DNA of 64,000 nt from a virus (Duplodnaviria; Heunggongvirae; Uroviricota; Caudoviricetes): IMG/VR virus record IMGVR_UViG_3300018080_000120; one strand, given 5' to 3'. The notes beneath the pieces were generated by a model. It saw only the letters and a program-made list of their open reading frames with translations, had not been told where the DNA came from and did no database searches. The translations under genes were made by a program, and so were the position numbers. This document shows, one piece after another, positions 2,630 through 27,221 of the stretch. Within the stretch, counting starts at the first letter, position 1. Each line of letters starts with the position of its first letter.

Positions 2630-3118
2630 ATGTTAAGTTCCGACTTTCCTTTTGCCGGATTTGTCTTAATTGTAGGATGCATTGTCTTTATTTGCTTGTG
2701 TCCTATTGTTGGAGTTCCGGTTATCTTGACCTGGCTGGTTTTGAACAATAAGGACCGGTTTCATGCGTTATTCTGTGAACCTAATGGCGGCGTTTCTATG
2801 GTTAGAACTTCTAAATTAAAGGAAATGGAGCAAGAATTGGAAGAAAAGGACGAATTTGTTGACCCCGTGGCGGAAAATTATAAGAAAGAGGTCGAAAGTC
2901 TGCTAAAACCGGGGTTTGATCAAAGCCCGGAGTGGCAAAAAGAGACGGAAGAGCTGCGAAAACAGCTAAAAGAAAGGCAAGAAAAGGCTAAAAAAGAAGA
3001 GAAGGAAGATTTAGAGCGCGAAAAGCGTGAAAAAGACGGATATACCGAAGAAATTAAGCAAAAAGTCGATGAAAAAGTCCAAAAAGTGCACTCTTCGTGG
3101 GTCTCCGGTTATTTTTAG
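2630..3118 (+). CDS. membrane-anchored protein with K/E-rich coiled-coil tail
   Basis: N-terminal hydrophobic segment then long lysine/glutamate-rich region. Confidence 0.55.
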   Translation: MLSSDFPFAGFVLIVGCIVFICLCPIVGVPVILTWLVLNNKDRFHALFCEPNGGVSMVRTSKLKEMEQELEEKDEFVDPVAENYKKEVESLLKPGFDQSPEWQKETEELRKQLKERQEKAKKEEKEDLEREKREKDGYTEEIKQKVDEKVQKVHSSWVSGYF

Positions 3119-3279
3119 TAGTGAAATTCCGATTTTTGAGCAATTTTGACGATTTTTTCAAGCAAAATACGATTTTTCGTCAAAAAACCGAATTCTTTTG
3201 AACAAAACGCTAATTTTTCGAAAATTTTGCTATTTTTAGCAAGCAAAATGACCATTTTTTCGATTTTGGGGGTAAAAAA
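3119..3279 (+). repeat. intergenic tandem array of ~7 degenerate ~20-22 bp units (GATTTTTY...CAAAAW)
   Basis: visible repeats: cgatttttgagcaattttgac / gattttttcaagcaaaatac / gatttttcgtcaaaaaacc / gaattcttttgaacaaaacgc / taatttttcgaaaattttgc / tatttttagcaagcaaaatgacc / attttttcgattttggg. Confidence 0.6.
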
Positions 3280-3281
3280 CC

Positions 3282-4034
3282 ATGGAAATATCAGCTCTGT
3301 CAAATAACCCATATGTTGTCAATATTTTTCCTGAACCAGAGAAAATTTCTGATATCAATGATGTGATCCAGAGCATTTTACCCTCGAACGACCTATTTGA
3401 CACAATCAGCGCCATTCAGAACGCTCAGATGGAACTTTTCCGCATTTCGGCGGGGGTAGATTATGGCAAAGCCAGTAGCCTGGATTATGTAAAATACCTG
3501 CAACAAGGAAATCCAAGAATAAAGGCTCTGGCCATGTCTATCGTTAGTCCGTGGGATAGTAATGACACCAAAATGTATAAACTGGAACAATGGGTCATTA
3601 ATAATATTGATTATGTATCTGACTGGGAAAATTATGGTCAGGATGAATACTGGGCTTACCCGACTCAAACTCTGGATCGCATGTCGGGGGATTGTGAAGA
3701 TGGCGCATTTTTACTCCATTCTCTTGCTCTTGCTGCTGGTGTTCCAGCTGAGAGGCTTCGAACTTATGGAGGTCTCGTTTTTAATCCCTATGGAACTCAA
3801 GCCGCTGGCCATGGTTGGACTTCATATCAAAGAGAATCAGATGATGAATGGATCGTAATGGACTGGTGTTATTGGCCAGAAGATTCTCCCGTCGGGGAAA
3901 GAACCCCTATGACGGAAGCTTTAAAATATATCGATGATTTCTTCTTCGTAAGTGCAAAAGAAGGAACAGTAGAAACTCCTTACTCAAATAGAGTGAGATA
4001 CGCAATGGGAGATCTCGTCAATATTTTCGCCTAA
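3282..4034 (+). CDS. transglutaminase-like cysteine protease/transglutaminase superfamily protein
   Basis: GDCEDGAFLLHSLALAAGVPAERLRTYGG (Cys core), GHGW (His), WIVMDW (Asp) = Cys-His-Asp triad of TGase-like fold. Confidence 0.7.
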   Translation: MEISALSNNPYVVNIFPEPEKISDINDVIQSILPSNDLFDTISAIQNAQMELFRISAGVDYGKASSLDYVKYLQQGNPRIKALAMSIVSPWDSNDTKMYKLEQWVINNIDYVSDWENYGQDEYWAYPTQTLDRMSGDCEDGAFLLHSLALAAGVPAERLRTYGGLVFNPYGTQAAGHGWTSYQRESDDEWIVMDWCYWPEDSPVGERTPMTEALKYIDDFFFVSAKEGTVETPYSNRVRYAMGDLVNIFA

Positions 4035-4264
4035 AATCGAAAAAGTGTAACAGTTTAGGGAATGTTCAGCCACCCCCCTATAAAATGGCGACCTCGATAT
4101 AACCCGGTAAAATTTGGTCTCCCCGGCTGGCAAAACCACATAATATATAATAATATCATAAACATACAAAATCAGGTATTTTACCATGAAAATAATACTT
4201 ACATTATGGCTGGTATTTACATTATACCATATAATATTAATATATATACATTAGGAGATAAACC

Positions 4265-4390
4265 ATGAAAGATAAAACAAGGGAAAATATAACCATAGGA
4301 TTTATTATTGGTACGGCTATGGTTATAATATTACTATATTTCTTTGGCGATATGGTGGTAGATTGGTTGTTCCACAAACTAATGTGCTGA
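4265..4390 (+). CDS. small hydrophobic protein (41 aa)
   Basis: RBS ttaggagataaacc-ATG; one TM segment; below ORF-track size cutoff. Confidence 0.35.
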   Translation: MKDKTRENITIGFIIGTAMVIILLYFFGDMVVDWLFHKLMC

Positions 4391-4649
4391 ACACCATATA
4401 AATGTAAAATACCCTATAGTTTATAGGAGGATAGAATGATCTGGAAATTATTCGATTATACTTGCATTTGCGTCATGGACCGATATATCGACGGCTGGTA
4501 TTGTTTGGTTGTCGATTATTGGCTTTGTTACATGTTTTATTGATCTATGGGAGAATAGACCATGAAAAAAGTAATGTTGTATGTTTGTATATATGTGGTT
4601 TCGTTGATGGCTTGCACGGCTTTATTTATATGGTTGGATATACTATGAT

Positions 4650-5133
4650 TTATATTTATATATATATGCCGATCAAATTTTCAGTTCCGCAAAAAATTTT
4701 CGATCGATAAGTTTGGTCGGCCGATCGATGAGAATGTGTGGTCGATCGATACCCTGACGCATACATATATATAAGTAAATATATCATAATAAAATACAAT
4801 ATCAATAACTTAAACCATTACAAACCATACTCAAACCCTACATTTCTAATACTACATATCAAATTGTCCAATCATATCTGGCGTTTATCCTATTACACTT
4901 CTATATATACCCCGTATTCTTTTACTCTACTCTATTATATAAAATAAGTAAATAAATCAAGTAGTTGAATAGGTCAAAAATGGTGTAAAAATACCATAAT
5001 AATATCAACTATTTGGCAGACGATAAATATACCATAAATAAGGCGAAAATACCGAAAAATAGGCATACATATATAAATATATATTAATAGATATTTAAAC
5101 TATTGCCATTATTATGTAAAAGGAGATAACTTT
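4650..5133. promoter_or_regulatory. AT-rich non-coding region with iterons (candidate origin/regulatory region)
   Basis: three CGATCGAT copies at ~4702, ~4723, ~4743 (~21 bp spacing); AAATACCATAA-like repeats at ~4985-5060; no convincing ORF. Confidence 0.4.
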
Positions 5134-5301
5134 ATGACAGAATGGTTGAATAGATTAACGATTCAATTAGCTGGAATCTACGACTATCTCGTGAGCTTAC
5201 CAAAGGAAATATATCACTGGTTTATATCTCTAAGCCCATTGGCTCAGATAGGATTAGTATTATTAATTATTGCTGCCATCATAATAATGCTTGACGAATA
5301 G
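5134..5301 (+). CDS. small membrane protein (55 aa)
   Basis: RBS aaaggagataac; hydrophobic C-terminal half; in-frame 168 nt. Confidence 0.4.
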   Translation: MTEWLNRLTIQLAGIYDYLVSLPKEIYHWFISLSPLAQIGLVLLIIAAIIIMLDE

Positions 5302-5335: not shown

Positions 5336-5788
5336 ATGAAATTATTTAGTATTATACTTTGTATAAGTTTACTTTACATGATGATTCACCCCGCGGCGAT
5401 CGCAGCAGAGGGGAGCACCATTTTCTGTTTCGAATGTAGTTATCCATGTTGGAGTGATGCAAAAGGCAATCATGCCACTTCCAAAAAATATCCTATGGAA
5501 TTCAAATTCGTATGGAAACTGGGAGAACGTAATGCCACAATGATAGGAAACGTTGGAACAGCTGAAGTGGCTGCCATACAAAACGCTTGTGGTATCACGT
5601 TTGTTGAGATAACAAATACTGGGAATGTCACAGCAACCACGATTAATCTCGAACAAATAAAAGAAATTAAAAAGAATGGCATCTTACAATATGTAATAAC
5701 TGAATCAGTTCACAGCCGTAACACTATAATGCCAGATGGATATCAAACATGGTGCCAATATTACGGAACTTGTGTTATTAAAAGATAA
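5336..5788 (+). CDS. secreted Cys-containing protein with signal peptide
   Basis: N-terminal MKLFSIILCISLLYMMIHPAAIAA signal; RBS aaaaggagg. Confidence 0.55.
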   Translation: MKLFSIILCISLLYMMIHPAAIAAEGSTIFCFECSYPCWSDAKGNHATSKKYPMEFKFVWKLGERNATMIGNVGTAEVAAIQNACGITFVEITNTGNVTATTINLEQIKEIKKNGILQYVITESVHSRNTIMPDGYQTWCQYYGTCVIKR

Positions 5789-5888
5789 GAATGCAAAAAA
5801 ACATAGGTATATTAATAATAGTGATATTTATTATCCTATGGATAATTGAAGGATAAACTATTGCCATATTTGGAGAAAAGAGGAAAAT

Positions 5889-6215
5889 ATGAGACAAAAA
5901 AGGGCTATCTCAATACTCAATCGATTGAAACTAACGTGGGATGAGAAAGAACAGGAAATGTTAATAGATGACCCATTTCCGAAAATCTCAGCGGATGAAT
6001 ATGAAGACTTAATTCAAGGATGTGACATGAGTGGGTCTCCAGGTCATGATGAACAACAAATTCTAAATCTACTTAAGGCAGCCTATCCAGTAATTCCTTT
6101 CAATATAATTAAACAATTGGAAGGTAGAAAATTACAAGGATTCAGCTATGATCGAAAAAAAGGTGTACTTATAGATATATCAGAAGAAAAAGTATATAAG
6201 TATCCAGAAGAATAG
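5889..6215 (+). CDS. hypothetical protein
   Basis: 108-aa ORF with RBS ggagaaaagagg. Confidence 0.5.
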   Translation: MRQKRAISILNRLKLTWDEKEQEMLIDDPFPKISADEYEDLIQGCDMSGSPGHDEQQILNLLKAAYPVIPFNIIKQLEGRKLQGFSYDRKKGVLIDISEEKVYKYPEE

Positions 6216-6217
6216 TC

Positions 6218-6255
6218 TTTACCAGAAAACATTTTACCCCGCGGCGATCCGCGGG
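6218..6255 (+). promoter_or_regulatory. family-1 upstream element E1 (TTTACCAGAAAACATTTTACC box + CCCCGCGGCGATCCGCGGG hairpin)
   Basis: perfect 7-bp GC stem, CGAT loop, ends 11 nt before ATG 6267 within SD. Confidence 0.7.
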
Positions 6256-6266
6256 AGGAGGAGAAA

Positions 6267-6674
6267 ATGAGCTTAAAAAAATGGATAATAGTAGATTTTG
6301 ACTGCTATCATGGTTGTAATAATCCAGAATTTAATCCAGGATGTGATGAGTCTTCAATCCGAATCAAAATTGATGCAGATTTAAGCAAGGAATACGATTT
6401 GTTCAAAAAGTACATGAAGATACCTTGTCCTCGCTGTGGTAAAGTTGGCGAGCAGAAGAGAAGTGGTTGGTGGGAAGTATCAAATAATGGCAAAATGAAA
6501 GACTATGATGGGTCTTTCTTCACATCAGCACATGTCCAAGATTACACAATAGAAATGATGGAAGCAAAAATCCAAGAAATTGATCATTCAATAGAGGCGC
6601 TAAAGAGGGAAAGAAAGGCTTTTGAAAAGAAAAAGGAGTTAGTCACGGAATGGGTAGAAATTCATAGAAATTAA
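6267..6674 (+). CDS. hypothetical Cys-containing protein (paralog of 12190..12597)
   Basis: 135 aa; about 60% identity to 12190 product (MSLKKWIIVDFDCYHGCNNPEF...PCPRCGKVGE). Confidence 0.65.
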   Translation: MSLKKWIIVDFDCYHGCNNPEFNPGCDESSIRIKIDADLSKEYDLFKKYMKIPCPRCGKVGEQKRSGWWEVSNNGKMKDYDGSFFTSAHVQDYTIEMMEAKIQEIDHSIEALKRERKAFEKKKELVTEWVEIHRN

Positions 6675-6681
6675 AGAATTA

Positions 6682-6703
6682 TTCACTCGCGGGCGATCCG
6701 CGG
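6682..6703 (+). promoter_or_regulatory. family-1 upstream element E2 (TTCACTCGCGGGCGATCCGCGG)
   Basis: hairpin CGCGG-GCGATC-CGCGG 14 nt before ATG 6718. Confidence 0.65.
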
Positions 6704-6717
6704 CGAGGAGATAAAAT

Positions 6718-7170
6718 ATGAGAAATGAACAGGGCTGGATAGTTATAGCCGAAACAAAAGATATTCCAGATGGCAACTATCTTCTGTCGTGGTGGTTTGA
6801 TGGCACTGGAGCGTATCCGGTACAGATTAAGGATGGTAAGGTGGCGCCTTATACCAGCTTTCGGGAGCCACAACCACTTTCTGTATTTAACAATTATCAC
6901 CTGCTTGAAGATACAAAAGAGCGAACCGTGTTCTATGAGGTAAACTACGACAGTGCAACGAATGTAGGACCTGCCACAGCCTACGGATCCACTCACCAAA
7001 TAGGATACTATAGAACATTACTCAATGCGAAGAAAGCGGCGGAAAAACATCGTGGGGGTGAGAAGATAGAGTGGGCTCCAAGTGAGGATGCTCTGACATG
7101 TAGATATTATATCAAAGAACAGTCCCGCAATGTTAAATATGAAATAATAGCACATTTGTTTGATGATTAA
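6718..7170 (+). CDS. hypothetical protein (N-terminus duplicated as remnant at 9285)
   Basis: 150 aa; first ~17 aa nearly identical to 9285..9395 remnant. Confidence 0.6.
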   Translation: MRNEQGWIVIAETKDIPDGNYLLSWWFDGTGAYPVQIKDGKVAPYTSFREPQPLSVFNNYHLLEDTKERTVFYEVNYDSATNVGPATAYGSTHQIGYYRTLLNAKKAAEKHRGGEKIEWAPSEDALTCRYYIKEQSRNVKYEIIAHLFDD

Positions 7171-7186
7171 TTTTAAGGAGAATAAT

Positions 7187-7384
7187 ATGTTAGAAACATT
7201 GACCGGAAAGAGAAGATTCCGTAAAGGATTCTTTGGTAAGTTAATACTTCAAGTAGAAGTCACAGCAGAATTCGATACGGAGATATGTCCAGGAATAGGG
7301 GATATCGAGAGAAGAGAAGTTACTGGATATCGGGATGCAACTATTGAAGACTTAACCGTACATGATAATGTAAAAGGAGAATAA
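7187..7384 (+). CDS. hypothetical small protein
   Basis: RBS ttaaggagaataat-ATG; 65 aa. Confidence 0.5.
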   Translation: MLETLTGKRRFRKGFFGKLILQVEVTAEFDTEICPGIGDIERREVTGYRDATIEDLTVHDNVKGE

Positions 7385-7385
7385 A

Positions 7386-7505
7386 ATGCCAGAAGCATTA
7401 AAACAAATGATGTGGTGTGTATTTGGAATACTTGCAATTTATGTAGGCATATATCTTTTGTTTAGTATTCCTGTTATAGTATATAAACTTATAGAACGTT
7501 TATAA
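7386..7505 (+). CDS. small membrane protein (39 aa)
   Basis: RBS aaaaggagaataaa-ATG; single TM. Confidence 0.35.
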   Translation: MPEALKQMMWCVFGILAIYVGIYLLFSIPVIVYKLIERL

Positions 7506-7510
7506 GAGCT

Positions 7511-7546
7511 TTTACCAGAAAACATTTTACCCCGCGGCGATCCGCG
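7511..7546 (+). promoter_or_regulatory. family-1 upstream element E3 (TTTACCAGAAAACATTTTACCCCGCGGCGATCCGCG)
   Basis: second copy of extended box + hairpin, ends 12 nt before ATG 7559. Confidence 0.7.
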
Positions 7547-7558
7547 TTAGAGGTGATA

Positions 7559-7882
7559 ATGAAAGAACCAGAAATAATAAAAGAGTATCAAGTCAGAACT
7601 ATGCGAAAATGGGTAGAGTTAGGGCCAAATCGCAGATGTCCAAGATACTGGCGAGATATAATCTGCTCAAAATCAAGGAGATGCGTCTGCCTTAGAGATG
7701 TTGAAACCCCATGGTGCTGGGGATGTGCGGATTGTGAAAGATTTTTCCCAAAGGTAAGCCGTGGTATGAAGGAAAACAGTGATAACTTTCCTTGTCCTTG
7801 TGACTTATATGGCAAAGAGCAAGTTGTAAAAATGGCAAAAAAGTATATCAGAGGATGGGAAGAACAAAGTTATGAGCAATAG
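7559..7882 (+). CDS. Cys-rich small protein
   Basis: multiple Cys pairs (CPRYW...CVCLRDVETPWCWGCADC). Confidence 0.55.
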   Translation: MKEPEIIKEYQVRTMRKWVELGPNRRCPRYWRDIICSKSRRCVCLRDVETPWCWGCADCERFFPKVSRGMKENSDNFPCPCDLYGKEQVVKMAKKYIRGWEEQSYEQ

Positions 7883-7890
7883 CCTGATTA

Positions 7891-7911
7891 TTCACCCGCA
7901 GGCGATCCGCG
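7891..7911 (+). promoter_or_regulatory. family-1 upstream element E4 (TTCACCCGCAGGCGATCCGCG)
   Basis: degenerate hairpin 14 nt before ATG 7926. Confidence 0.6.
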
Positions 7912-7925
7912 TTAAGGAGGTGAGT

Positions 7926-8582
7926 ATGTATAAATATATAGTATTACTAATCAGTATGTTATGTCTGGTAGCATGTGCTCCTTCTTATGAAGAATTGTGT
8001 GAGAAACGTACTAAGATAGAAACTGAATTAGTGCTCTGGGCTAATTGTAGGAGTAGTTTCGCTCAGACATCTAATATGATACAGAAAATCCGCGAACTGG
8101 ATAAAATCACTGCTGAAATAGAGAAACACTATCCAGCCAAATGCCAGCAGGAATTAGAAGAGAATAAACCAAAAGTGGTAAAAACCTATGACAGTTTTAT
8201 AATAACTTCTGATGGATATGTTATCGAGGCAGATAAGAGAACATATTTCTACGAAGGATATGAGTATGGAAGGCGCTGTAGCTGTCTATTCGACGATCTA
8301 AGTGTATTATATGAGGACTACGACCTAAACGCCGTCCACGAGCTGGTCGCAACATATCCAAGGTGCTTCACACCTGTGAAAGCATGGACTCTTGGAGTAC
8401 TGTGTAATAAGCCAGAGAAACTGCCTGAAGGATATACATACTCAGGAATGCATAAAATAAGATTTAGCGGGTCATATAAAAAATACTATGCACATGCAAA
8501 ACAACTATTCATGTTCCAGACTTATCAAGAACCAAAACCCAAATATTTAGATATAGGAGAAGACTACGAGTTGGTAGAATAG
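7926..8582 (+). CDS. lipoprotein
   Basis: MYKYIVLLISMLCLVAC lipobox signal peptide. Confidence 0.55.
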   Translation: MYKYIVLLISMLCLVACAPSYEELCEKRTKIETELVLWANCRSSFAQTSNMIQKIRELDKITAEIEKHYPAKCQQELEENKPKVVKTYDSFIITSDGYVIEADKRTYFYEGYEYGRRCSCLFDDLSVLYEDYDLNAVHELVATYPRCFTPVKAWTLGVLCNKPEKLPEGYTYSGMHKIRFSGSYKKYYAHAKQLFMFQTYQEPKPKYLDIGEDYELVE

Positions 8583-8627
8583 TATATAACTATATATACC
8601 TAACTATTTTAGGCATTTAACACTCTA
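8581..8627 (+). repeat. family-2 upstream element A (AGTATATAACTATATATACCTAACTATTTT...)
   Basis: shares AAGTATRTATTACTAAYTATTT box with copies at 8891 and 9388. Confidence 0.5.
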
Positions 8628-8639
8628 TTGGAGGGCCAT

Positions 8640-8861
8640 ATGATTACACTGAAAGAAGGGGACATTTGCCCAGAATGTGAGAGGGGGCATTTAAAGCCAG
8701 CTGTGAAGGATATAAACTTTACATGTAAGGGTAAAGTGTTCTTTTCAGAAGAAAATATGGCCATACTACGCTGTGATCTATGTGACTATAAAACCTTTAG
8801 GGATAGGGCAAAAAGCGAAGAAATCGAAAAGGCCCTTATAGCGTTTCGAGAAAAGATGTAA
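8640..8861 (+). CDS. zinc-ribbon small protein
   Basis: CPECERG...CDLCDY; SD ggaggg 5 nt upstream. Confidence 0.55.
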   Translation: MITLKEGDICPECERGHLKPAVKDINFTCKGKVFFSEENMAILRCDLCDYKTFRDRAKSEEIEKALIAFREKM

Positions 8862-8890
8862 AAGGGCATAAATTGTATCTATGTATGTAT

Positions 8891-8951
8891 AAGTATATAT
8901 TACTAACTATTTGCTGAGCCATATCAGTGGTTTAGCAGTGATCAAGGAGGG
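8891..8951 (+). repeat. family-2 upstream element B (AAGTATATATTACTAACTATTT ... GTTTAGCAGTGATCAAGGAGGG)
   Basis: two conserved boxes; ends 5 nt before ATG 8957. Confidence 0.6.
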
Positions 8952-8956
8952 TCAGA

Positions 8957-9250
8957 ATGAAAGATACCAATTTCACGGTAGAAATAGATGTAGGTGATGG
9001 CAGAACCTTACACTTCAATACCGATCAGTTGAAGATAGACATCTATCAATTATCTGGTAAAGAACGGGTAAAGGCAATGCATATATTCGGTGTTGCAGAA
9101 GGGATTATACCAAGAGATCAGCCAGAACAGAAAGTTATGACACTTAAAGCTGAAGCTGTTTGTAAGCCTGATAGTGGTGTTGATGTACTTAAGAGAGGGC
9201 CTCATGGTAATAAGAATAGTGTTATAACCTTTAGTTCAAGTGAAATGTAA
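8957..9250 (+). CDS. hypothetical protein
   Basis: 97-aa ORF downstream of family-2 element. Confidence 0.5.
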   Translation: MKDTNFTVEIDVGDGRTLHFNTDQLKIDIYQLSGKERVKAMHIFGVAEGIIPRDQPEQKVMTLKAEAVCKPDSGVDVLKRGPHGNKNSVITFSSSEM

Positions 9251-9272
9251 TTCACCCGCGACCGATCCACAC
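9251..9272 (+). promoter_or_regulatory. family-1 upstream element E5, degenerate (TTCACCCGCGACCGATCCACAC)
   Basis: left arm conserved, right arm decayed; precedes gene remnant. Confidence 0.5.
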
Positions 9273-9284
9273 TAGGAGACAAAT

Positions 9285-9395
9285 ATGAGGAACGAACAAG
9301 GCTGGATAGTTATAGCCAAAACAGAAAATATACCACCAGTTGATTGCTTTCTACTGGGTAATGAAATCAACGAGTTCGTCAATCATGGTATATAA
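9285..9395 (+). pseudogene. truncated paralog (36 codons) of 6718..7170
   Basis: MRNEQGWIVIAKTENIP... matches MRNEQGWIVIAETKDIP...; DNA near-identical for ~50 nt then diverges to early stop. Confidence 0.5.
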
Positions 9396-9453
9396 GTATG
9401 TATTACTAATATTTTATAACGCCTTTTCGGGGCGTTAGCGGTGATCCAGGAGG
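9388..9453 (+). repeat. family-2 upstream element C (GGTATATAAGTATGTATTACTAATATTTT ... hairpin AACGCC-TTTTCGG-GGCGTT ... GCGTTAGCGGTGATCCAGGAGG)
   Basis: 6-bp perfect hairpin at ~9418-9436 embedded between the two boxes. Confidence 0.6.
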
Positions 9454-9458
9454 TCATT

Positions 9459-9668
9459 ATGGCAAGACAGCAATTTTTCTATTTATTAGAAATTGATGAT
9501 GAAGTTGAAAATGAGGTATTTTACAACACAAAACAAATAGTAGATCACATAGAAGAACAAGGACTGGTCAATGGAGATGAAGATGTACAGGTTTTGAAAG
9601 TAAAGCTCCATAAAGTTATTAAGCCTATTATAGAGAGAAAGATTACTATACCAGAGGATACAGAATAA
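9459..9668 (+). CDS. hypothetical acidic small protein
   Basis: ATG 6 nt after ccaggagg SD (ORF-track GTG 9441 also possible). Confidence 0.5.
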   Translation: MARQQFFYLLEIDDEVENEVFYNTKQIVDHIEEQGLVNGDEDVQVLKVKLHKVIKPIIERKITIPEDTE

Positions 9669-9676
9669 CCCGATAA

Positions 9677-9697
9677 TTCACCCACGACCGATTCGTG
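9677..9697 (+). promoter_or_regulatory. family-1 upstream element E6, compensatory variant (TTCACCCACGACCGATTCGTG)
   Basis: stem CACGA/TCGTG preserved by paired substitutions; 14 nt before ATG 9712. Confidence 0.65.
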
Positions 9698-9711
9698 AGA
9701 AAGAGGAGGAA

Positions 9712-9897
9712 ATGAAGTTATACTTTTTATTCAGAGTCAGTTTGCTAAGCACGACCAAGGATATTTGTAGGAAAGAGATGATGAAACCGGTGAGTGCCAG
9801 CACAGAGCAGAATGCAGTGAATAAACTCTTGCGTTACTTCGATTTTAATCACGAAGGCTGGAAAGTTGAAGAGATAGAAAACTGTACAATATCATAG
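9712..9897 (+). CDS. hypothetical small protein
   Basis: 61-aa ORF. Confidence 0.45.
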   Translation: MKLYFLFRVSLLSTTKDICRKEMMKPVSASTEQNAVNKLLRYFDFNHEGWKVEEIENCTIS

Positions 9898-9918
9898 CGT
9901 TAGCAGTGATCAAGGGGG
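9897..9918 (+). repeat. family-2 upstream element D (GCGTTAGCAGTGATCAAGGGGG)
   Basis: second box only; 7 nt before GTG 9926. Confidence 0.55.
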
Positions 9919-9925
9919 TAAGAAC

Positions 9926-10192
9926 GTGAACATTAAGAAAATAGGTAAATTTATCGAAATAGACCCAACACATTTGTTCTATAAAAAGTATACCATATGG
10001 AGTAATGGAGGCATGTTAGTAGATCGTCGTAAACCTACAAGGGTACAATCATATTTAGATGAATTGCCTCTTCTCTGGGAAGTACTTTTGAAAGCTGCAT
10101 ACTATGTAATTACATGGCCTATTGCAGCAGTTATTAAGTTCGTGTGGTACTTACTTACTGGTATATTTGTTCCTTCTAGGTTTTTAAGGTAG
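9926..10192 (+). CDS. hypothetical protein with C-terminal TM segment (GTG start)
   Basis: 88-aa ORF; hydrophobic C-terminus. Confidence 0.45.
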   Translation: MNIKKIGKFIEIDPTHLFYKKYTIWSNGGMLVDRRKPTRVQSYLDELPLLWEVLLKAAYYVITWPIAAVIKFVWYLLTGIFVPSRFLR

Positions 10193-10212
10193 GAAACAGG
10201 ACAACCTGATTA

Positions 10213-10234
10213 TTCACCCGCGCGAGGATTCGCG
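10213..10234 (+). promoter_or_regulatory. family-1 upstream element E7, compensatory variant (TTCACCCGCGCGAGGATTCGCG)
   Basis: stem CGCGA/TCGCG, loop GGAT. Confidence 0.65.
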
Positions 10235-10252
10235 AGAAAGGGAGGAAGGAGA

Positions 10253-10423
10253 ATGTTTAGACTATTCAAAAAAGACCCTCTAAAAAGGAAGCTAAGAAAG
10301 GCTAAAAGGGCAAAGAAGCAGGAAAGTAAAGCATATTGGAAAGCTGCCGAGGCAAGATGGAAAGAAGGACTTAGAATCGATGAATACATGGAGATGTGTA
10401 TACCGGCTGGAACTATGATTTAA
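10253..10423 (+). CDS. small basic protein (56 aa)
   Basis: strong SD gggaggaaggaga; follows E7; below ORF-track cutoff. Confidence 0.45.
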   Translation: MFRLFKKDPLKRKLRKAKRAKKQESKAYWKAAEARWKEGLRIDEYMEMCIPAGTMI

Positions 10424-10478
10424 ATCCACTACATAAAGCGTAATTCGCCCTGTGGTAACCAACAAGGAGGAGCAGATA

Positions 10479-10793
10479 ATGACAAAATCAGAAATTAACA
10501 GAGTAATGGAGAAAGTCAAACTTAATCCGATGCCTATTGATGAAAAGACAGGAAAACAGAATCCTTGGATATGCCCAAAATGTCAGGCTGAAGGCAAAGC
10601 AAAAGAAGAAATTCTGGATGAGAAAACTGAGTCTGCGGACTTCATGCTCGGAAATGAATCACTGTCGTACATAGAAATGGCGTGTGAATGTGGCTACGAG
10701 TGGTATATTATCTTGGAGTCAAAAGGCTGGACGGATGATGATGTTGCAGCGGAAGATATAATAAGCAAATTCATCCATGAAAAAGAAGAGTAA
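10479..10793 (+). CDS. zinc-ribbon protein
   Basis: CPKCQ...CECG; SD caaggagg. Confidence 0.55.
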   Translation: MTKSEINRVMEKVKLNPMPIDEKTGKQNPWICPKCQAEGKAKEEILDEKTESADFMLGNESLSYIEMACECGYEWYIILESKGWTDDDVAAEDIISKFIHEKEE

Positions 10794-10839
10794 GCAACAT
10801 TATTCATTCGTAGCTATCTGCGAAAAAGGAGGAAAAGAT

Positions 10840-11112
10840 ATGTCTGAGGAGAAAACAAGAGTAATTGACGGAGTCGAATATGAAGAAATGGGCCCTTACT
10901 GTGATATATGTGGGGCTCATATGGGTGAATACTATGATCCTAAGAAGGGATCTTTTATTAACCCGCACAATTATGATGAATACAGCAGCAATGTTTGCCC
11001 AGAATGCGGCCAGGAATATTCTTACGAAGAGGGTGATATGCCTATACTTGATGATGAAATGAAGGCTCTTATACTGGCGCATAACAAAGCGAAGCTCAAA
11101 GGAAAAGAGTAG
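10840..11112 (+). CDS. zinc-ribbon protein
   Basis: CDICG...CPECG; SD aaaggagg. Confidence 0.55.
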   Translation: MSEEKTRVIDGVEYEEMGPYCDICGAHMGEYYDPKKGSFINPHNYDEYSSNVCPECGQEYSYEEGDMPILDDEMKALILAHNKAKLKGKE

Positions 11113-11120
11113 GACAAATC

Positions 11121-11140
11121 TTTACCCGCGGCGATCCGCG
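11121..11140 (+). promoter_or_regulatory. family-1 upstream element E8 (TTTACCCGCGGCGATCCGCG)
   Basis: 13 nt before ATG 11154. Confidence 0.65.
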
Positions 11141-11153
11141 TTAGGAGGATAGA

Positions 11154-11498
11154 ATGATAAATCTTAAAGACTACATTTTAGACAGGATAGCGATTTCGTG
11201 CACTAACTTTCAACCATCGCTAACAGCAATGCGGCTTTTCGGAAGCTCGACCAGCTACGATAATATAGAATATGTATATATCTATAAAGATAACAAACGT
11301 GTGGGCAGCCTTAAGCTGTACTTCGAAGTGGATACTTTTAAAATAACCTTGGATAAAGGCCAGTTAGGTATGTTTAAAGGCAAATCGTATACTGGGCAGT
11401 ACGCCGATTTAACAGCTCTTGATGGAGTGGCCCAATGGCTTATTAAAGAAGCGGTTTCTGAGAACATCGACAAGGCCAAGCTCAAAGAAAAGAGATAA
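11154..11498 (+). CDS. hypothetical protein
   Basis: 114-aa ORF. Confidence 0.55.
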   Translation: MINLKDYILDRIAISCTNFQPSLTAMRLFGSSTSYDNIEYVYIYKDNKRVGSLKLYFEVDTFKITLDKGQLGMFKGKSYTGQYADLTALDGVAQWLIKEAVSENIDKAKLKEKR

Positions 11499-11540
11499 AC
11501 TCTTTATCTACTCAGCGATCCTCATAAAGGTGGTGAAACA

Positions 11541-11738
11541 ATGAACTTCGAAAAAATGAGAGAAACCTGTCCATCACATATTACAGAATATCATGGACAC
11601 TGGCATAAATGTAGATCTCGAATACATCGGGAGACTGCAAGAGGCCAGGTACTCTTTGATGTCTGTAGTAAGAAAAACTGTCCTTTTTTACATGTGTTAA
11701 GGCATGTGTTGGGATTTGTGAAGGAAAAAAGAGGATGA
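11541..11738 (+). CDS. His/Cys-containing small protein
   Basis: 65-aa ORF, SD aaaggtggtg. Confidence 0.45.
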   Translation: MNFEKMRETCPSHITEYHGHWHKCRSRIHRETARGQVLFDVCSKKNCPFLHVLRHVLGFVKEKRG

Positions 11739-11914
11739 TCTCAAAAGAACAATTATTACATATTGTGAGTGTTTGTCCAGATAAGATGCCATCAGAAAAA
11801 GAACTCAAAGATCTGTATGAGTGTCATCTTAGACAATGTAAACATCCAAAGGAAGAAGATGAGTACTGGCAAAGAGTAACGAATAGAGTTAATGATATAA
11901 TAAGAAAAAAGTAG
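11735..11914 (+). CDS. small protein (59 aa)
   Basis: ATGA overlap with upstream; SD aaaagagg. Confidence 0.4.
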   Translation: MISKEQLLHIVSVCPDKMPSEKELKDLYECHLRQCKHPKEEDEYWQRVTNRVNDIIRKK

Positions 11915-11916
11915 TT

Positions 11917-11953
11917 TTTACCAGAAAACGTTTTACCCCGCGGCGATCCGCGG
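11917..11953 (+). promoter_or_regulatory. family-1 upstream element E9 (TTTACCAGAAAACGTTTTACCCCGCGGCGATCCGCGG)
   Basis: third copy of extended box + perfect hairpin. Confidence 0.7.
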
Positions 11954-11966
11954 AGAGGAGGAGAGA

Positions 11967-12146
11967 ATGCTAGTAAAAATCAATTTGAAAGATGGGGAAG
12001 AACCTATACACGGATCATCATGGGATATCGATGAGCCTAGTGGCATGATAATACTGAGAGGAAAAACGCCAGCACCTGATGAGAAAGTATATGAATACAA
12101 TGTACCTATAGATAATATAGTGTATATCCAAGAATTGGAAGAATAA
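11967..12146 (+). CDS. small protein (59 aa)
   Basis: SD gaggaggagaga. Confidence 0.45.
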   Translation: MLVKINLKDGEEPIHGSSWDIDEPSGMIILRGKTPAPDEKVYEYNVPIDNIVYIQELEE

Positions 12147-12154
12147 CCAAATTC

Positions 12155-12176
12155 TTTACCGCGCGAGGATCCGCGC
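12155..12176 (+). promoter_or_regulatory. family-1 upstream element E10 variant (TTTACCGCGCGAGGATCCGCGC)
   Basis: stem GCGCG/CGCGC with GGATCC loop. Confidence 0.65.
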
Positions 12177-12189
12177 TGAGGAGAAGCAA

Positions 12190-12597
12190 ATGAGCTTAAA
12201 AAAATGGATAATAGTAGATTTTGACTGCTATCATGGTTGTAATAATCCGGAGTTTAAGATCGGCTGCGACGAATCCCTTATCCGTATTAAGATCGATGAC
12301 ACTTTGGCCATGAAGCATATGCTTGCCAAAAAATATATGAGAATGCCCTGCCCTCGTTGCGGTAAGGTTGGTGAGCACAAGAGATCTGGCTATTGGCTGG
12401 CTCCAGAAGATGGACAGATGGAAGATTACGATGGGACTACTTTCACTCCTGCGGACGTTCAGGACTACACAGCAGAAATGATGGAAGCGAAAATTTCAGA
12501 AATTGCCCACCTGATAAGCAACAAGAAGGAGGAACTGACAGCCCTTGAGAAAGAAAAGGAGTCTATAAAGGAATGGGTAGAAATTCATAAAAATTAA
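12190..12597 (+). CDS. hypothetical Cys-containing protein (paralog of 6267..6674)
   Basis: 135 aa, same length and register as 6267 product. Confidence 0.65.
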   Translation: MSLKKWIIVDFDCYHGCNNPEFKIGCDESLIRIKIDDTLAMKHMLAKKYMRMPCPRCGKVGEHKRSGYWLAPEDGQMEDYDGTTFTPADVQDYTAEMMEAKISEIAHLISNKKEELTALEKEKESIKEWVEIHKN

Positions 12598-12604
12598 AGA
12601 ACTA

Positions 12605-12626
12605 CCCACCCCGCGGCGATCTACGG
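12605..12626 (+). promoter_or_regulatory. family-1 upstream element E11, degenerate (CCCACCCCGCGGCGATCTACGG)
   Basis: left arm intact, right arm mutated. Confidence 0.5.
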
Positions 12627-12642
12627 AGAGGAGGCAAAAGAT

Positions 12643-12885
12643 ATGTATTTATCAGCCACGCCAGAAAATATGGAAATCGCACTGGCAATCACAAAGGAGC
12701 ATGGTGAAAACGCCAATGTGCAAATAATATCTCGTGATAAACTGAGCGCCTCCAACAAATCATTGAAAGCGCGTCATCCTGATGCAAAAGCTTTTATCTT
12801 TCTGAGCAACATAGATGTGGTATGTTTATGTACTCGGGAACTTGAAAAATATCTTGAAAAACTGGAGAAGGAGAAAGAAAAGTGA
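12643..12885 (+). CDS. hypothetical protein
   Basis: 80-aa ORF. Confidence 0.5.
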   Translation: MYLSATPENMEIALAITKEHGENANVQIISRDKLSASNKSLKARHPDAKAFIFLSNIDVVCLCTRELEKYLEKLEKEKEK

Positions 12886-13079
12886 TAGCAGTTTTTTTCA
12901 TTATAATTTTTGCCACAATGATGATAGCTTTAATGCAAGGAGTAGGATTATGTAATTTTATTACAAAATATGATTGGTCGCCTCTAAAAAGTGTGGTTAT
13001 AACTGTATTTGCTGCATTGGTAGATGGAGTTCTCATGACATGCCTTCTCTATGAAATATGTGGCATATCATTCTTTTAA
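12882..13079 (+). CDS. small membrane protein
   Basis: two TM segments; ATGA overlap. Confidence 0.45.
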   Translation: MIAVFFIIIFATMMIALMQGVGLCNFITKYDWSPLKSVVITVFAALVDGVLMTCLLYEICGISFF

Positions 13080-13088
13080 GGAAAATCT

Positions 13089-13415
13089 ATGATTAAAAAT
13101 CTATTATTATCAATAGTATTTGTTTTATACTGCGGCGCAAATGCTTTGGCGGCTGACAAATGGAATACTGAAGAAAAAGTTCTCTATGGAACTTTCATCG
13201 GATTACAGGCTTTAAACTACGGCAACACAAATGAAGCTTGTGAACAAGGCACGGAAGCAATGCCTCATATGAAGAAAATTCATGAGAAATATGGTTCAAC
13301 AGGTCTTGTTGTTTACAAAGTAGTTACCACAGCAGGTGTTGGTGTTGTAGCTCATTTTCTTCCGAAGCCTTATAGGAGATATTTCCTATGGGGGGGCAAA
13401 TTTCGTTGTTGGTAG
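13089..13415 (+). CDS. secreted protein with signal peptide
   Basis: MIKNLLLSIVFVLYCGANALA signal. Confidence 0.5.
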   Translation: MIKNLLLSIVFVLYCGANALAADKWNTEEKVLYGTFIGLQALNYGNTNEACEQGTEAMPHMKKIHEKYGSTGLVVYKVVTTAGVGVVAHFLPKPYRRYFLWGGKFRCW

Positions 13416-13477
13416 TTTTGTGATACATGATAATTTTGTTGCTGCACATTTCAAATGGTAGGAGGTTAAAAAACATA

Positions 13478-15704: not shown

Positions 15705-16042
15705 TATACTATGAATACGATGATGGCTGGTACTTCCTATTAGATGAGACTCGGCAATGTCTTTGGTCTGGAAAAGAGATAGCTGTAGGATTTTCCTATG
15801 ACCCTGACGATGATCCCATTCCCGGCACTCTCCATAAGCACGGTAGTCCAGAAGCCATAAATAAGTGGGCTGCTGAGCAGCGTAAACTATTGAGTGCAGC
15901 TGGACTCCAGGATATGGCCAAAAGAATCATTGTAGTTTCCGGTCAGATTCCAGTTGAAGATCTGAATAAGATCATTTCTATCAGCGGATACGTCGGGATA
16001 TGGTACAAAAGAATGCAAGAAAAAAAGGAGCGTAATGAGTAA
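15701..16042 (+). CDS. hypothetical protein
   Basis: ATGA-coupled 113-aa ORF. Confidence 0.5.
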   Translation: MIYYEYDDGWYFLLDETRQCLWSGKEIAVGFSYDPDDDPIPGTLHKHGSPEAINKWAAEQRKLLSAAGLQDMAKRIIVVSGQIPVEDLNKIISISGYVGIWYKRMQEKKERNE

Positions 16043-16269: not shown

Positions 16270-16824
16270 ATGAAAAACGTGCTTGAAGATTTTGAAAATG
16301 GTGAAGTATTCAATCTAAAAAAAGAAGAATCTCTATTTGGCCCTTCTGATACCCCCGCCGTGATCCTGCATAATCCCAAATATCCTCATAATGTTGGTGC
16401 AGTAGTTCGGGCTTTATCTTGCTTTGGTGGTAAAACCTTGGTTTTTACAGGCAACCGGGTTTCTTTAACTCCGCCGGAAAATAAGGGGTATCGCTTACCG
16501 AGAGAGGAAAGAATGAAGGGATACAAAGATGTCACCATGATCAATGATGACTACCCTTTCAATCGCTTTTCTAAAAATGTTATTCCGGTCGCAATAGAAG
16601 TAAGGCGTAATTCTACACCATTGCCTATTTTCGAGCACCCTGAAAATGCTGTCTATGTGTTTGGGCCTGAAGATGGTAGCATTCCACAGGTTATGCTCCA
16701 ACATTGTCAGAGATTCGTGGTGATTCCGTCCAAACACTGCTTAAATTTGGCAGCGGCGGTGAACGTTATTCTTTATGACAGAATATCAAAACTTAACATA
16801 CTTATAGAGGAGGACATAAGATGA
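16270..16824 (+). CDS. SpoU/TrmH-family (SPOUT) RNA 2'-O-methyltransferase
   Basis: PHNVGAVVRALSCFG, VYVFGPEDGSIP, VVIPSKHCLNLAAAVNVILYDR = SpoU motifs 1-3; start chosen after upstream zinc-ribbon gene (ORF track extends to 16078). Confidence 0.75.
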   Translation: MKNVLEDFENGEVFNLKKEESLFGPSDTPAVILHNPKYPHNVGAVVRALSCFGGKTLVFTGNRVSLTPPENKGYRLPREERMKGYKDVTMINDDYPFNRFSKNVIPVAIEVRRNSTPLPIFEHPENAVYVFGPEDGSIPQVMLQHCQRFVVIPSKHCLNLAAAVNVILYDRISKLNILIEEDIR

Positions 16825-25119: not shown

Positions 25120-26037
25120 TTGATTGAACTAAGCAAAGATTACGAAAGAATATATGATAACATAATCGATCACACAGGGCGCTATATACAAAAACATAAA
25201 TTGCAATCTGTAGTGATTGGGTTATCTGGTGGAATAGATAGCACTCTGACCGCAGCTCTTGCAGATGCTATAGCTTGGGATATTGATGTCCATCTGAGAA
25301 TAATCGGCGTAAGTATTCCTTCTATGACCAACCATCAGGCCGAAATAGAAAGGGCGAGAAAGACGGGCGAAGCTTTTTGTGATGAGCTTCATGTAATGGG
25401 CAAGGGATTCGGCACAAAGAGATATACTCTGGATTCCATTCTTAAAGCATTCACCTCTCGGCTAAAACCATATAACAAAATCTTCCCCATTCCTATCGCA
25501 ATCCGGAATAGAAGTTCTAGAATGCAAAAGGTTGGCCGAGGCAATTTGAAAGCTCGAATAAGAATGGCAATTCTTTATGACATTGCCCATCATCGTTCAG
25601 GTATGGTTTTATCTACTGATAACTATACTGAATATTTACTCGGCTTCTGGACCTTACATGGAGATGTCGGCGATTTTGGAATGTTTCAAAACTTATTCAA
25701 GACCGAAGTTTACGGGCTTGCTAAGTATGTTTCCACCCGCCTTGTGAAGAAAGGTTGGAAGAATAAAAAACTCCCTCTGCAAATTGAGGCGCTTAGGGAA
25801 GCTGCTTCAGCTATTCCAACGGATGGGCTTGGTCTTGGCAGCGATATGGATCAGATAGGAGCCTCGAATTATTATCAGGTTGACAAAGTCTTGTTGAAAC
25901 ATCTAAATGATGTTCCTATAGTTTCGCCTTATATAGCCGAGAGAATGACAGCCGATCGTATTATTAAAAGACACAAAAGTACGAATTATAAAAGGCATAA
26001 TCCATATAACATTCCAAGAGAGGGCTTATTGAAATGA
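25120..26037 (+). CDS. nadE: NH3-dependent NAD+ synthetase-like PP-loop ATPase (TTG start)
   Basis: GLSGGIDSTLTAALA PP-loop; TDNYTEYLLGFWTLHGDVGDFGMFQNLFKTEVYGLAKYV matches NadE region (GTDNKSE..GY.T.YGDG...P...L.K..V..LA). Confidence 0.65.
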   Translation: MIELSKDYERIYDNIIDHTGRYIQKHKLQSVVIGLSGGIDSTLTAALADAIAWDIDVHLRIIGVSIPSMTNHQAEIERARKTGEAFCDELHVMGKGFGTKRYTLDSILKAFTSRLKPYNKIFPIPIAIRNRSSRMQKVGRGNLKARIRMAILYDIAHHRSGMVLSTDNYTEYLLGFWTLHGDVGDFGMFQNLFKTEVYGLAKYVSTRLVKKGWKNKKLPLQIEALREAASAIPTDGLGLGSDMDQIGASNYYQVDKVLLKHLNDVPIVSPYIAERMTADRIIKRHKSTNYKRHNPYNIPREGLLK

Positions 26038-27221
26038 TAATCAAGAGCTTATTAGATAATGACACCTACAAATTTACCATGTGGCAAGCTGCACTACATC
26101 GATTTCCGGATGCAATGGTGCGATACAAATTTCATTGTCGCACTCCAGGTTTGGACCTCGGTAAATTTGCTGTTAGGGTGGTGGATGAGATAAATCACCT
26201 TTGCTCCTTAAGATTTCTGGGCGACGAGCTGGAATATTTGAGTAAATTACGATTCATTAAGCCTGATTTCGCTCAATTTCTCAAGCTATACCAATATGAT
26301 CCCCAGTTTGTAAAAGTCAATTCTCATAAGAGTTTTGAGAATAACGACTTAGAGATTGAAGTGGAAGGCCCGTGGGTTCATACCATTGGTTTCGAAGTTC
26401 CGATTCTGGCCATTGTCAGCGAGATATACAGCGAATCACAGAATCCAGACTGGGACCTTGGTAGAAATAAGCTTGACGAAAAAATAGAGCTGGTCAAAAG
26501 GCATGGCTTTCCTCAAACATTGACAACTACGGAACTCATTTTTCTATTTTCAGAATTTGGTGGTAGAAGAAGAGCAAGTTTCGATTGGCATGATTATGTG
26601 ATTCGATTATTATCTGTTACCTTGCCGGAAAATCTTGTTGGTACCAGCAACGTCTATTTTGCCAAGAAATACAATCTGAAAGCGATTGGAACTCAAGCTC
26701 ATGAATGGTTTCAAGCTCATCAACAGCTTGGCTATCGATTGATAGACTTTCAAAGAATGGCTTTGGAAAACTGGGCAAAAGAATATCGCGGAGATTTAGG
26801 AATTGCATTATCTGATACTGTTGGCGTGAATGCCTTTCTCAGAGATTTTGATATGTATTTTGCCAAACTCTACGATGGAAGCCGCCAGGATTCTGGATCT
26901 CCGTATTCATATTGTGAAAAAATGATACACCATTATGAAGGATTCAAAATATCTCCATTGTCGAAATTCGTAGTTCCGAGTAATGGTTTAACAATGAGAG
27001 AAGCCCTGAAAATTTACCATGAGTTTCGGCATCATATAAACATATCTTGTGGTATTGGAACTCATTTAACAAATGACCTTAACTATAAACCAGCACAGCT
27101 GGTTATGAAAATGGTTGAGTGTAACGGTCAGCCTGTCGCAAAGATAAGCGATGATCCAGCGAAGGGAATGTGTGAAGATCCCGAATATGTGGAACATCTA
27201 AAGAAAGCCTTTAGCCTTTAA
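26034..27221 (+). CDS. pncB: nicotinate phosphoribosyltransferase-like protein
   Basis: N-terminus LLDNDTYKFTMWQAALHRFPDAMVRYKF resembles PncB N-terminus; length ~400 aa. Confidence 0.65.
   Translation: MIIKSLLDNDTYKFTMWQAALHRFPDAMVRYKFHCRTPGLDLGKFAVRVVDEINHLCSLRFLGDELEYLSKLRFIKPDFAQFLKLYQYDPQFVKVNSHKSFENNDLEIEVEGPWVHTIGFEVPILAIVSEIYSESQNPDWDLGRNKLDEKIELVKRHGFPQTLTTTELIFLFSEFGGRRRASFDWHDYVIRLLSVTLPENLVGTSNVYFAKKYNLKAIGTQAHEWFQAHQQLGYRLIDFQRMALENWAKEYRGDLGIALSDTVGVNAFLRDFDMYFAKLYDGSRQDSGSPYSYCEKMIHHYEGFKISPLSKFVVPSNGLTMREALKIYHEFRHHINISCGIGTHLTNDLNYKPAQLVMKMVECNGQPVAKISDDPAKGMCEDPEYVEHLKKAFSL

Follow-up and report, generated by a model that had tools for sequence, protein, structure and literature searches.

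A start-associated hairpin repeat in the small-gene region of an uncultured large phage

The locus and its repeated element

The 64,000-nucleotide (nt) stretch of tailed-phage DNA analyzed here (IMG/VR record IMGVR_UViG_3300018080_000120, hereafter the window) has a GC content of 38.9%, and nearly all of its plausible genes are on the + strand. Toward its left end, between positions 5385 and 12645, a short GC-rich element with the anatomy of a hairpin occurs in 14 copies plus one decayed relic, all on the + strand, and every intact copy stands just ahead of the Shine-Dalgarno sequence (SD) and start codon of a gene. The copies were identified by direct reading, a Hamming scan, a repeat finder, and a covariance model run with its filters off, and these methods agree on the following set:

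5385-5411, + strand: relic, TTCACCCCGCGGCGATCGCAGCAGAGG; right arm gone; inside the open reading frame (ORF) 5336-5788; 19.5 bits, E = 0.07
6218-6266, + strand: c01, long form; upstream box TTTACCAGAAAACATTTTACC, 7-bp stem CCCGCGG/CCGCGGG, loop CGAT, SD; ATG at 6267; -14.5 kcal/mol
6682-6717, + strand: c02; box TTCACT, stem (T)CGCGG/CCGCG(G), 5-nt loop GCGAT; ATG at 6718
7510-7558, + strand: c03, long form; 5-bp stem; ATG at 7559; left parent of a hybrid copy in the variant contig L157
7891-7925, + strand: c04; box TTCACC, stem CGC(A)GG/CCGCG with a bulged A; ATG at 7926
9251-9284, + strand: c05; box and CGATCC retained, stem lost (0 kcal/mol); ahead of a truncated 36-aa paralogue, 9285-9396
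9677-9711, + strand: c06; stem CACGA/TCGTG, two compensated pairs relative to the consensus; ATG at 9712
10213-10252, + strand: c07; stem CGCGA/TCGCG, loop GGAT; ATG at 10253
10444-10478, + strand: c08, degenerate; TTCGCC, TGTGG-TAA-CCAACA; ATG at 10479; 35.2 bits
10803-10839, + strand: c09; AU-richer 7-bp stem TTCGTAG/CTGCGAA, loop CTAT, several compensated pairs; ATG at 10840
11121-11153, + strand: c10; box TTTACC, 5-bp stem; ATG at 11154; right parent of the L157 hybrid copy
11503-11540, + strand: c11, degenerate; box TTTATC and CGATCC retained, stem lost; ATG at 11541; 31.6 bits
11917-11966, + strand: c12, long form; 6-bp stem; ATG at 11967; 49.3 bits
12155-12189, + strand: c13; stem GCGCG/CGCGC, loop AGGATC; ATG at 12190
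12605-12642, + strand: c14; box CCCACC, weakened stem CCGCGG/CTACGG; ATG at 12643; missing from L157

The sequence-only reading of this DNA had counted about 11 copies, which was too few: those at 10444, 10803, and 11503 and the relic had been overlooked. With regard to their order, the copies follow one module, which consists of a TTYACC box, a GC-rich stem of 5-7 bp, a loop that keeps GAT, the SD, and the ATG, within about 35 nt (about 50 nt in the three long copies); the box starts at 6233, 6682, 7526, 7891, 9251, 9677, 10213, 10444, 10803, 11121, 11503, 11932, 12155, and 12605. The long copies (6218, 7510, and 11917) carry an extra upstream box, TTTACCAGAAAACRTTTTACC, in the repeat finder output, and the form TTTACCAGAAAAC(A/G)TTTTACC, already described for them, was recovered as family D5 of the same program. 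The 17-mer core ACCCGCGGCGATCCGCG, allowing up to 3 mismatches, had 5 matches against 0.01 expected, so that chance is no explanation for the copies.

As for distribution, the covariance model was run over both strands of the 64 kb, and nothing beyond the copies and the relic reached E < 0.3; the 10 kb past the window end held no further copy. The element is thus restricted to a single 7 kb block within the 74 kb examined, and copies at random positions or orientations were not found in the window outside 5385-12645. The TTYACCC box on its own occurs 13 times on the + strand and 15 times on the - strand, and it is not enriched ahead of other genes.

Placement is strict. In 14 of 14 intact copies the element lies in an untranslated spacer on the gene strand, with a stop codon upstream and an SD downstream, as the sequence-only reading had it; the hairpin abuts the SD, ending 0-5 nt from it, and the 3' end of the stem is 12-18 nt from the ATG (11-18 nt in the sequence-only reading). 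The box start precedes the ATG by 33-35 nt in seven of the eight measured copies, with c07 at 40 nt, while the distance from the stop codon to the box varies from 0 to 20 nt; this fixed spacing on one side and loose spacing on the other assign the module to the downstream gene. Spacers with an intact copy measure 41-63 nt; the median spacer in other parts of the window is 10 nt, and in L031, a more distant relative, it is 9 nt.

Two further sequences touch on this family. The relic now codes for part of an apparent N-terminal signal peptide, recognized by eye (MKLFSIILCISLLYMMIHPAAIAAEG), in the ORF 5336-5788, where a former leader module appears to have been absorbed into the coding region. 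It also contains GCGATCGC, which prompted a check for the cyanobacterial HIP1 palindrome; this candidate was dropped, as the sequence occurs once in the window and is not enriched. Finally, three genes have another start-associated motif, GTTAGCRGTGATCMAGGRGG, directly next to their SD (8914-8950, 9417-9453, and 9882-9918); GCGGYGATCC, found in the left arm and loop of the main element, also occurs in this motif, which looks like a version of the element that has no right arm.

Selection on pairing, loop, and box

The consensus from alignment A2 is AATTATTCACCC-CGCGG-CGAT-CCGCG-..-AGGAGG-..-ATG. The core is 85% GC in the consensus copy and 70% GC on average, compared with 38.9% for the window; the sequence-only reading had given about 75% in a genome of 38% GC. 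A hairpin of 5-7 bp is predicted in 12 of the 14 copies. The stems CACGA/TCGTG (9677), CGCGA/TCGCG (10213), and GCGCG/CGCGC (12155), which had been pointed out as paired substitutions, are indeed present, and the copy at 10803 adds TCGTAG/CTGCGA.

Regarding the pairing, a register-free arm-swap test gave a sum of -86.7 kcal/mol for the native arms versus -67.0 ± 6.7 kcal/mol for permuted ones (p = 0.002); native arms beat swapped arms, and this establishes selection on pairing. For the diverged copies c06 and c09, good folding requires their own arms, with values of -5.1 for native c06 versus a mean of -1.3 with foreign arms, and of -6.5 versus -1.5 for c09. In the MAFFT register, five of the six stem pairs are changed on both sides, a result matched by 6 of 500 shuffles, and 61% of the cells are paired; this plain covariation count is weak or at most suggestive, since loop length and register vary, and for this reason the arm-swap test was used instead.

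Selection is not limited to pairing. In alignment A2, GAT is found in the loop of 12 of the 14 copies and the loop A in 14 of 14; conservation is 90% or higher at T6, T7, A9, and the loop T, and the arms are more variable. CGATCC persists in c05 and c11 despite the loss of their stems. The loop and the box are therefore selected in sequence as well, and of the earlier proposal that selection acts on a hairpin and not on primary sequence, the hairpin holds and the second half does not, as GAT and TTYA vary less than the arms. Taken together, the conservation pattern points to a folded object read by a specific factor. A dyad operator does not fit, because compensatory changes would bring no benefit there.

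Copies at recombination junctions

Other samples yielded three contigs that are near-identical variants of this phage, and recombination junctions between variants lie in or beside copies of the element. Two identical tracts matter here:

6267-6325, + strand: 59-nt tract, 5' end of the 135-aa gene 6267-6674
12190-12248, + strand: identical 59-nt tract, 5' end of the paralogous 135-aa gene 12190-12597

Despite this identical 5' end, the two genes are only about 72% identical overall, and their zinc-ribbon-like proteins are 69% identical. In contig L029 (ENA), window positions 5651-6325 are joined to 12249-13462, so that c01 is kept and is followed by the 12190-type paralogue; contig L157 (Logan) has the reciprocal arrangement, c13 followed by the 6267-type gene. 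The crossover of both falls in the 59-nt tract beside c01 and c13. A second paralogue pair occurs in the array, namely the 150-aa gene 6718-7170 and the truncated 36-aa copy 9285-9396 behind the decayed c05.

L157 also lacks 3.6 kb of the window between c03 and c10 (7547-11137, with 11 ORFs), and at this point it has a hybrid copy made of the left part of c03 and the right part of c10, with the crossover within their common core of about 20 nt. A C-to-A change private to the hybrid speaks against a chimera assembled from window-type reads. Window 11138-12248 is 100% identical in L157, which makes the mosaic boundaries sharp, and the homology between the two restarts at 12637, directly 3' of c14. 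Other L157 breakpoints (window 7373 and 6593) are away from copies. Co-occurring strains differ greatly in the genes that they have in this region, as L157 carries wholly different genes left of the array (L157 1-6815, including SNase-like, AAA_5, and COOH-NH2 ligase genes) and a 2.4-kb insert of small cysteine-rich ORFs devoid of the element (L157 8364-10760).

More distant relatives place the element in a narrower lineage. Homologues of the 135-aa array gene, with 54-65% identity, are present on six contigs (L015, L016, L030, L031, L032, and L033), where the small genes are about 9-12 nt apart or overlap, and the covariance model R1 found no copy in any of the six. It follows that the element is an insertion specific to this lineage, in spacers that otherwise contain an SD and nothing else. 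One of the six, L031, has a repeat of its own, AAAAGTATACGGGCTATAAA, directly ahead of the SD of two genes (15748-15783 and 16604-16648), and repeats of this start-associated kind, with sequences that differ, may recur within this phage group.

Other features of the window

Megablast and tblastn detected no similarity of the window to any of 50,697 deposited phage records; the phage collection was searched with the array and with the polymerase described below, at the level of near relatives and of proteins, and gave no match. Scans of IMG/VR with the motif and two proteins returned single chance matches or no relatives. The identifiable genes away from the array include the following:

25120-26037: NAD synthase
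26034-27221: NAPRTase
39225-40637: CCA-adding enzyme
43469-44782: RtcB ligase
45833-47122 and 62027-63235: two phiEco32-type COOH-NH2 ligases
53091-56390: 1099-aa protein with Rpb2_6 (beta) and Rpb1_2 (beta') domains on a single chain

The first six of these genes represent RNA-repair and NAD-salvage functions, and the window also encodes a helicase, a radical-SAM protein, a NADAR protein, an HNH endonuclease, and a SpoU methylase; such functions are typical of large phages. For the 1099-aa protein, metagenomes yielded over 400 homologues, on contigs as long as 327 kb; its PDB matches are weak and limited to bacterial beta subunits, with none in the phage collection, and it may represent an undescribed family of fused phage RNA polymerases. 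The phage itself comes from a lineage of large phages that is uncultured and whose fused RNA polymerase is unusual.

Genes are densely packed from 13 kb to 64 kb, and AT-rich non-coding stretches (3118-3282, 4034-4265, and 4710-5134) sit just upstream of the element array; this layout suggests the start of an early region. In the first stretch, 163 nt of non-coding sequence at 3118-3282 contain imperfect repeats of about 37-40 nt (ATTTTTGAGCAATTTTGACGATTTTTTCAAGCAAAAT and similar), in two copies 81 nt apart. Three CGATCGAT repeats follow each other at an exact spacing of 21 nt (4701, 4722, and 4743) beside a 420-nt AT-rich non-coding region, and (G)TAAAATACC motifs recur at 4100-5060, in their vicinity; the repeats at 4701-4750 could mark an origin or a further array of sites for a protein.

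A 25-nt AT-rich box, TATAAGTATATATTACTAACTATTT, occurs on the + strand only and only between 4.7 and 9.4 kb (5072-5096, 8585-8609, 8888-8912, and 9391-9415, with weaker versions at 4760 and 5808). The four strong boxes are 50-70 nt ahead of the start codons at 5134, 8640, 8957, and 9459, and two of the three GTTAGCRGTGATCMAGGRGG copies come after such boxes. This box is probably the early promoter class of the phage, and the boxes at 5072, 8585, 8888, and 9391 could supply transcription through the array.

Interpretation and alternatives

The reading we favor, with a confidence that falls somewhat short of even, is that the element is a cis-acting hairpin in the 5' leader of the mRNA, recognized by a sequence-specific factor, and that it doubles as a recombination point. 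In the transcript, the module would present a single-stranded UUYACC, the GC-rich 5-7 bp stem, and the GAU loop, followed by the SD and AUG of a small early ORFan gene, and the hairpin, with its conserved loop and 5' flank, would be the target of a sequence-specific RNA-binding protein or endoribonuclease. Because the hairpin is 0-5 nt from the SD, binding or cleavage would set the translation and/or the stability of the downstream cistron, and about 14 early genes would be brought under one post-transcriptional control. We infer the action in RNA, the existence of a trans-acting factor, and the direction of the effect. Four features speak for a leader hairpin in RNA: the copies are untranslated, they are locked to the SD, their stems covary while loop and flank are conserved, and separate AT-rich promoter-like boxes exist. 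The variation of the arms next to a constant loop and box fits a factor that recognizes loop and flank by sequence and the stem by shape. Separately from regulation, dispersed direct repeats of 20-50 nt, together with the adjoining identical tract, serve as crossover points, and recombination at or beside the copies deletes, inserts, or exchanges blocks of cassette genes between co-occurring variants; this recombination role is the best-supported part of the mechanism.

Several observations weigh against action in the mRNA. The antisense strand folds slightly better than the sense strand (-111.9 versus -91.9 kcal/mol summed), and wobble pairs do not name a strand either, so a hairpin at the DNA level is conceivable. 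Pfam and PHROGs searches of the array and neighboring ORFs revealed no candidate for a binding protein or nuclease, the array ORFs having no Pfam match above threshold. Behind the copies, the SDs are about as accessible as those of 120 other genes (mean unpaired probability 0.48 versus 0.51, p = 0.84), so that gating of the SD by the hairpin alone is not evident. The L157-specific cassettes and several array genes have no element, which makes it dispensable for the expression of small genes. Moreover, conserved motifs at a fixed distance before phage genes have often proved to be promoters.

This last point leads to the main rival, a promoter plus leader hairpin for a phage RNA polymerase, either the fusion at 53091-56390 or a virion polymerase encoded outside the window; it ranks below the mRNA hairpin, and we regard it as possible but doubtful. 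Here the TTYACC box, with or without the hairpin, would direct initiation; transcription would begin at the hairpin or shortly ahead of it, and the hairpin would shield the 5' end; in a variant, the DNA hairpin itself would be recognized, as in phage N4. In its favor, the motif is conserved, has a single orientation, and keeps its distance to the starts of 14 genes, the window does encode a divergent single-chain beta/beta' polymerase, and the early promoters of N4 show the same conservation pattern (PMC4496689). Phage P23-45 provides a further precedent, as AT-rich boxes and GC-rich elements likewise occur within the same 9 kb here. However, an element confined to 7 kb of the 74 kb examined is no general promoter of this genome, and the box alone, about as frequent on one strand as on the other, is not enriched ahead of other genes. 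In the small-gene arrays of relatives that encode a polymerase of a homologous family, no comparable motif recurs from gene to gene; the geometry of N4, with a start about 11 nt from the loop center, would have the transcript begin inside or after the SD; and no T7-like virion polymerase was seen in the window, the beta/beta' fusion being the only polymerase identified among the ORFs searched. A sigma-70 promoter was rejected, since the scan found 39 such sites versus 39.2 expected from shuffles and none at the copies. A broader proposal cuts across these readings, namely that the hairpin is the site recognized by a phage-encoded machine new for this lineage, either a beta/beta'-type polymerase with a hairpin-dependent class of promoters, so that the logic of N4 would be used by an unrelated enzyme family, or a sequence-specific protein, similar to Cas6 yet directed at mRNA, that would bind or cleave the hairpin and so process or gate about 14 early ORFan messages, and that it is a point of cassette exchange as well; we hold it as a speculation and think it rather unlikely.

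The remaining explanations were all judged improbable, to different degrees. That the element might be a selfish or neutral dispersed repeat, similar to a miniature mobile element and persisting through cassette spread and recombination with no regulatory role, would agree with the junctions of natural variants in or beside copies, with the more distant relatives that do not have it, and with the decayed copies c05 and c11 and the relic at 5385; the compensatory stem changes and the higher conservation of loop and box than of arms indicate instead selection on a folded, recognized object, the uniform orientation and fixed register with the SD also count against it, and no terminal inverted repeats, target-site duplications, or transposase were seen. 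We consider it improbable, and slightly more so that the hairpin acts on the upstream cistron or the polymerase, as a partial terminator, a pause site, or a barrier to 3' exonucleases like the repetitive extragenic palindromic (REP) elements. A stable GC hairpin does follow every stop codon, and P23-45 has seven unusual terminators at the early genome end, each marked by a conserved motif of 26 nt; yet the element keeps close to the downstream SD and ATG and stands at variable distances from the upstream stop, and an intrinsic terminator was discarded because the hairpin is not directly followed by a U tract and no copy was scored as a terminator on the + strand. A structure for SD occlusion and translational coupling, in which a pyrimidine box (UCACC or CUUU) pairs with the SD, the GC hairpin acts as a clamp, and a ribosome terminating upstream opens it, is very improbable: the box does pair with the SD region in the minimum-free-energy folds of c01, c03, c04, c07, c10, and c13, but the SDs are as accessible as elsewhere (the comparison with 120 genes above), and the z-scores of the full module are modest. 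Least probable of all, with hardly any weight, is the mimicry of a host repeat, either a CRISPR repeat (as an RNA anti-CRISPR) or a REP element. It would suit the location among small early genes, and there is a loose likeness in layout to CRISPR repeats of the GTTCAC-stem-loop type. The copies, however, differ among themselves. Rfam gave no match at gathering score in the window and none relevant at E <= 10 in 5800-13000, CRISPR repeat families included; in a genome scan for ACCCNGCGGCGATCCGCGG, the matches among the 120 listed were all single, mostly from high-GC taxa and with no multi-match locus, which lends no support to an origin from host REP or CRISPR repeats; and a metagenome scan for TTTACCC[N]GCGGCGATCCGCG returned 9 matches, all by chance, on contigs of 49-70% GC.

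Two further candidates were set aside. As for translational bypassing, of the kind known from T4 gene 60 and mitochondrial byp elements, each downstream ORF has its own SD and ATG by inspection, landing on the take-off codon GAA would miss the downstream frame in c01 (the only copy checked), and homologues of the 135-aa gene stand as independent genes in relatives. Integron attC sites, to judge from their known features, are much longer than this element, and inspection, with no formal search, noticed neither sequences like the R'/R'' core sites nor an integrase.

Significance

Early ORFans usually hold host-takeover and anti-defense functions, and the element marks a co-regulated, rapidly shuffled block of such genes. 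It extends the idea behind the promoter-early stem-loops (PeSLs) of T4-like phages, in which a regulatory motif is also a recombination point, to an unrelated phage and a different architecture, with evidence for shuffling at base-pair resolution from co-occurring natural variants. If the recognizing factor is found, the 35-nt module could serve as a compact, portable part for the control of expression, and as a signature for early regions in metagenomic phage contigs.

Comparison with known systems

The closest analogy in behavior is with the PeSLs (Arbiol 2010; Comeau 2014), which consist of a stem-loop, an AT-rich region, sigma-70 -35 and -10 boxes, and an SD, and for which a role as recombination points for cassettes was proposed in T4-like phages (PMC4122927). 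In either case, a short composite motif recurs in the spaces between small ORFans of a hyperplastic block, its 3' side ends in the SD and start codon of the downstream ORF, and copies are located at insertion, deletion, or replacement junctions between close relatives, here with the c03/c10 hybrid of L157 as the example. The anatomy differs: in the present element the box precedes the hairpin, the hairpin abuts the SD, and the stem is GC-rich with a conserved loop. No sigma-70 promoter (-35, about 17 nt, -10) lies between stem-loop and SD, where a gap of 0-5 nt leaves no room for one, and no terminator-like stem-loop with a U tract on the + strand precedes a promoter. The likeness to PeSLs drawn by the sequence-only reading thus holds for behavior, that is, for flanking ORFans and marking recombination junctions, and fails for anatomy.

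Regarding placement, close parallels are the start-associated sequence (SAS) and its extended form (ESAS) in Cluster K mycobacteriophages, which are lineage-specific, occur in 11-19 copies, and are thought to function in translation initiation; the SAS has an asymmetric 13-bp consensus, GGGATAGGAGCCC, which includes the SD and stands 3-7 bp away from the start codon, and the ESAS has 17-bp arms in which departures from the consensus do not support pairing in RNA (PMC3203893). As in those phages, the repeats here are lineage-specific and oriented, and they are found only just upstream of the start codons of non-structural genes, in a single orientation (14 of 14 on the + strand) and with 33-40 nt from box to ATG. 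In contrast, TTYACC-CGCGG-CGAT-CCGCG lies 5' of the SD and does not conform to the SAS consensus, and its arms are only 5-7 bp, with compensatory changes that do support pairing.

In the early operon of T7, processing hairpins for RNase III, which are long irregular duplexes, lie between the cistrons. A hairpin in each spacer of an early polycistronic region, just upstream of the next ribosome-binding site, is common to both; the stems here are too short for RNase III, and the likeness is one of layout.

In N4, the early promoters are GC-rich hairpins; certain loop and stem bases are conserved in them, and the remaining stem positions may vary provided that they pair. There are three of them, with a 3-nt loop, and they are used by a giant T7-like polymerase (PMC4496689). 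The GC-rich 5-7 bp stem, the conserved loop bases, the stem positions under selection for pairing only, and the location at the early genome end are all shared, but the present element has 14 copies, one per gene, and a loop of 4-6 nt, and the N4 geometry would put the start inside the SD. In P23-45, two polymerases use AT-rich and GC-rich promoter motifs that cluster at the early genome end (PMC10770324), and these polymerases are of the same broad two-barrel class.

In conclusion, the element is best filed as a start-associated regulatory repeat that doubles as a recombination point in a hyperplastic region, in which its copies cluster at the indel and replacement junctions between close relatives.

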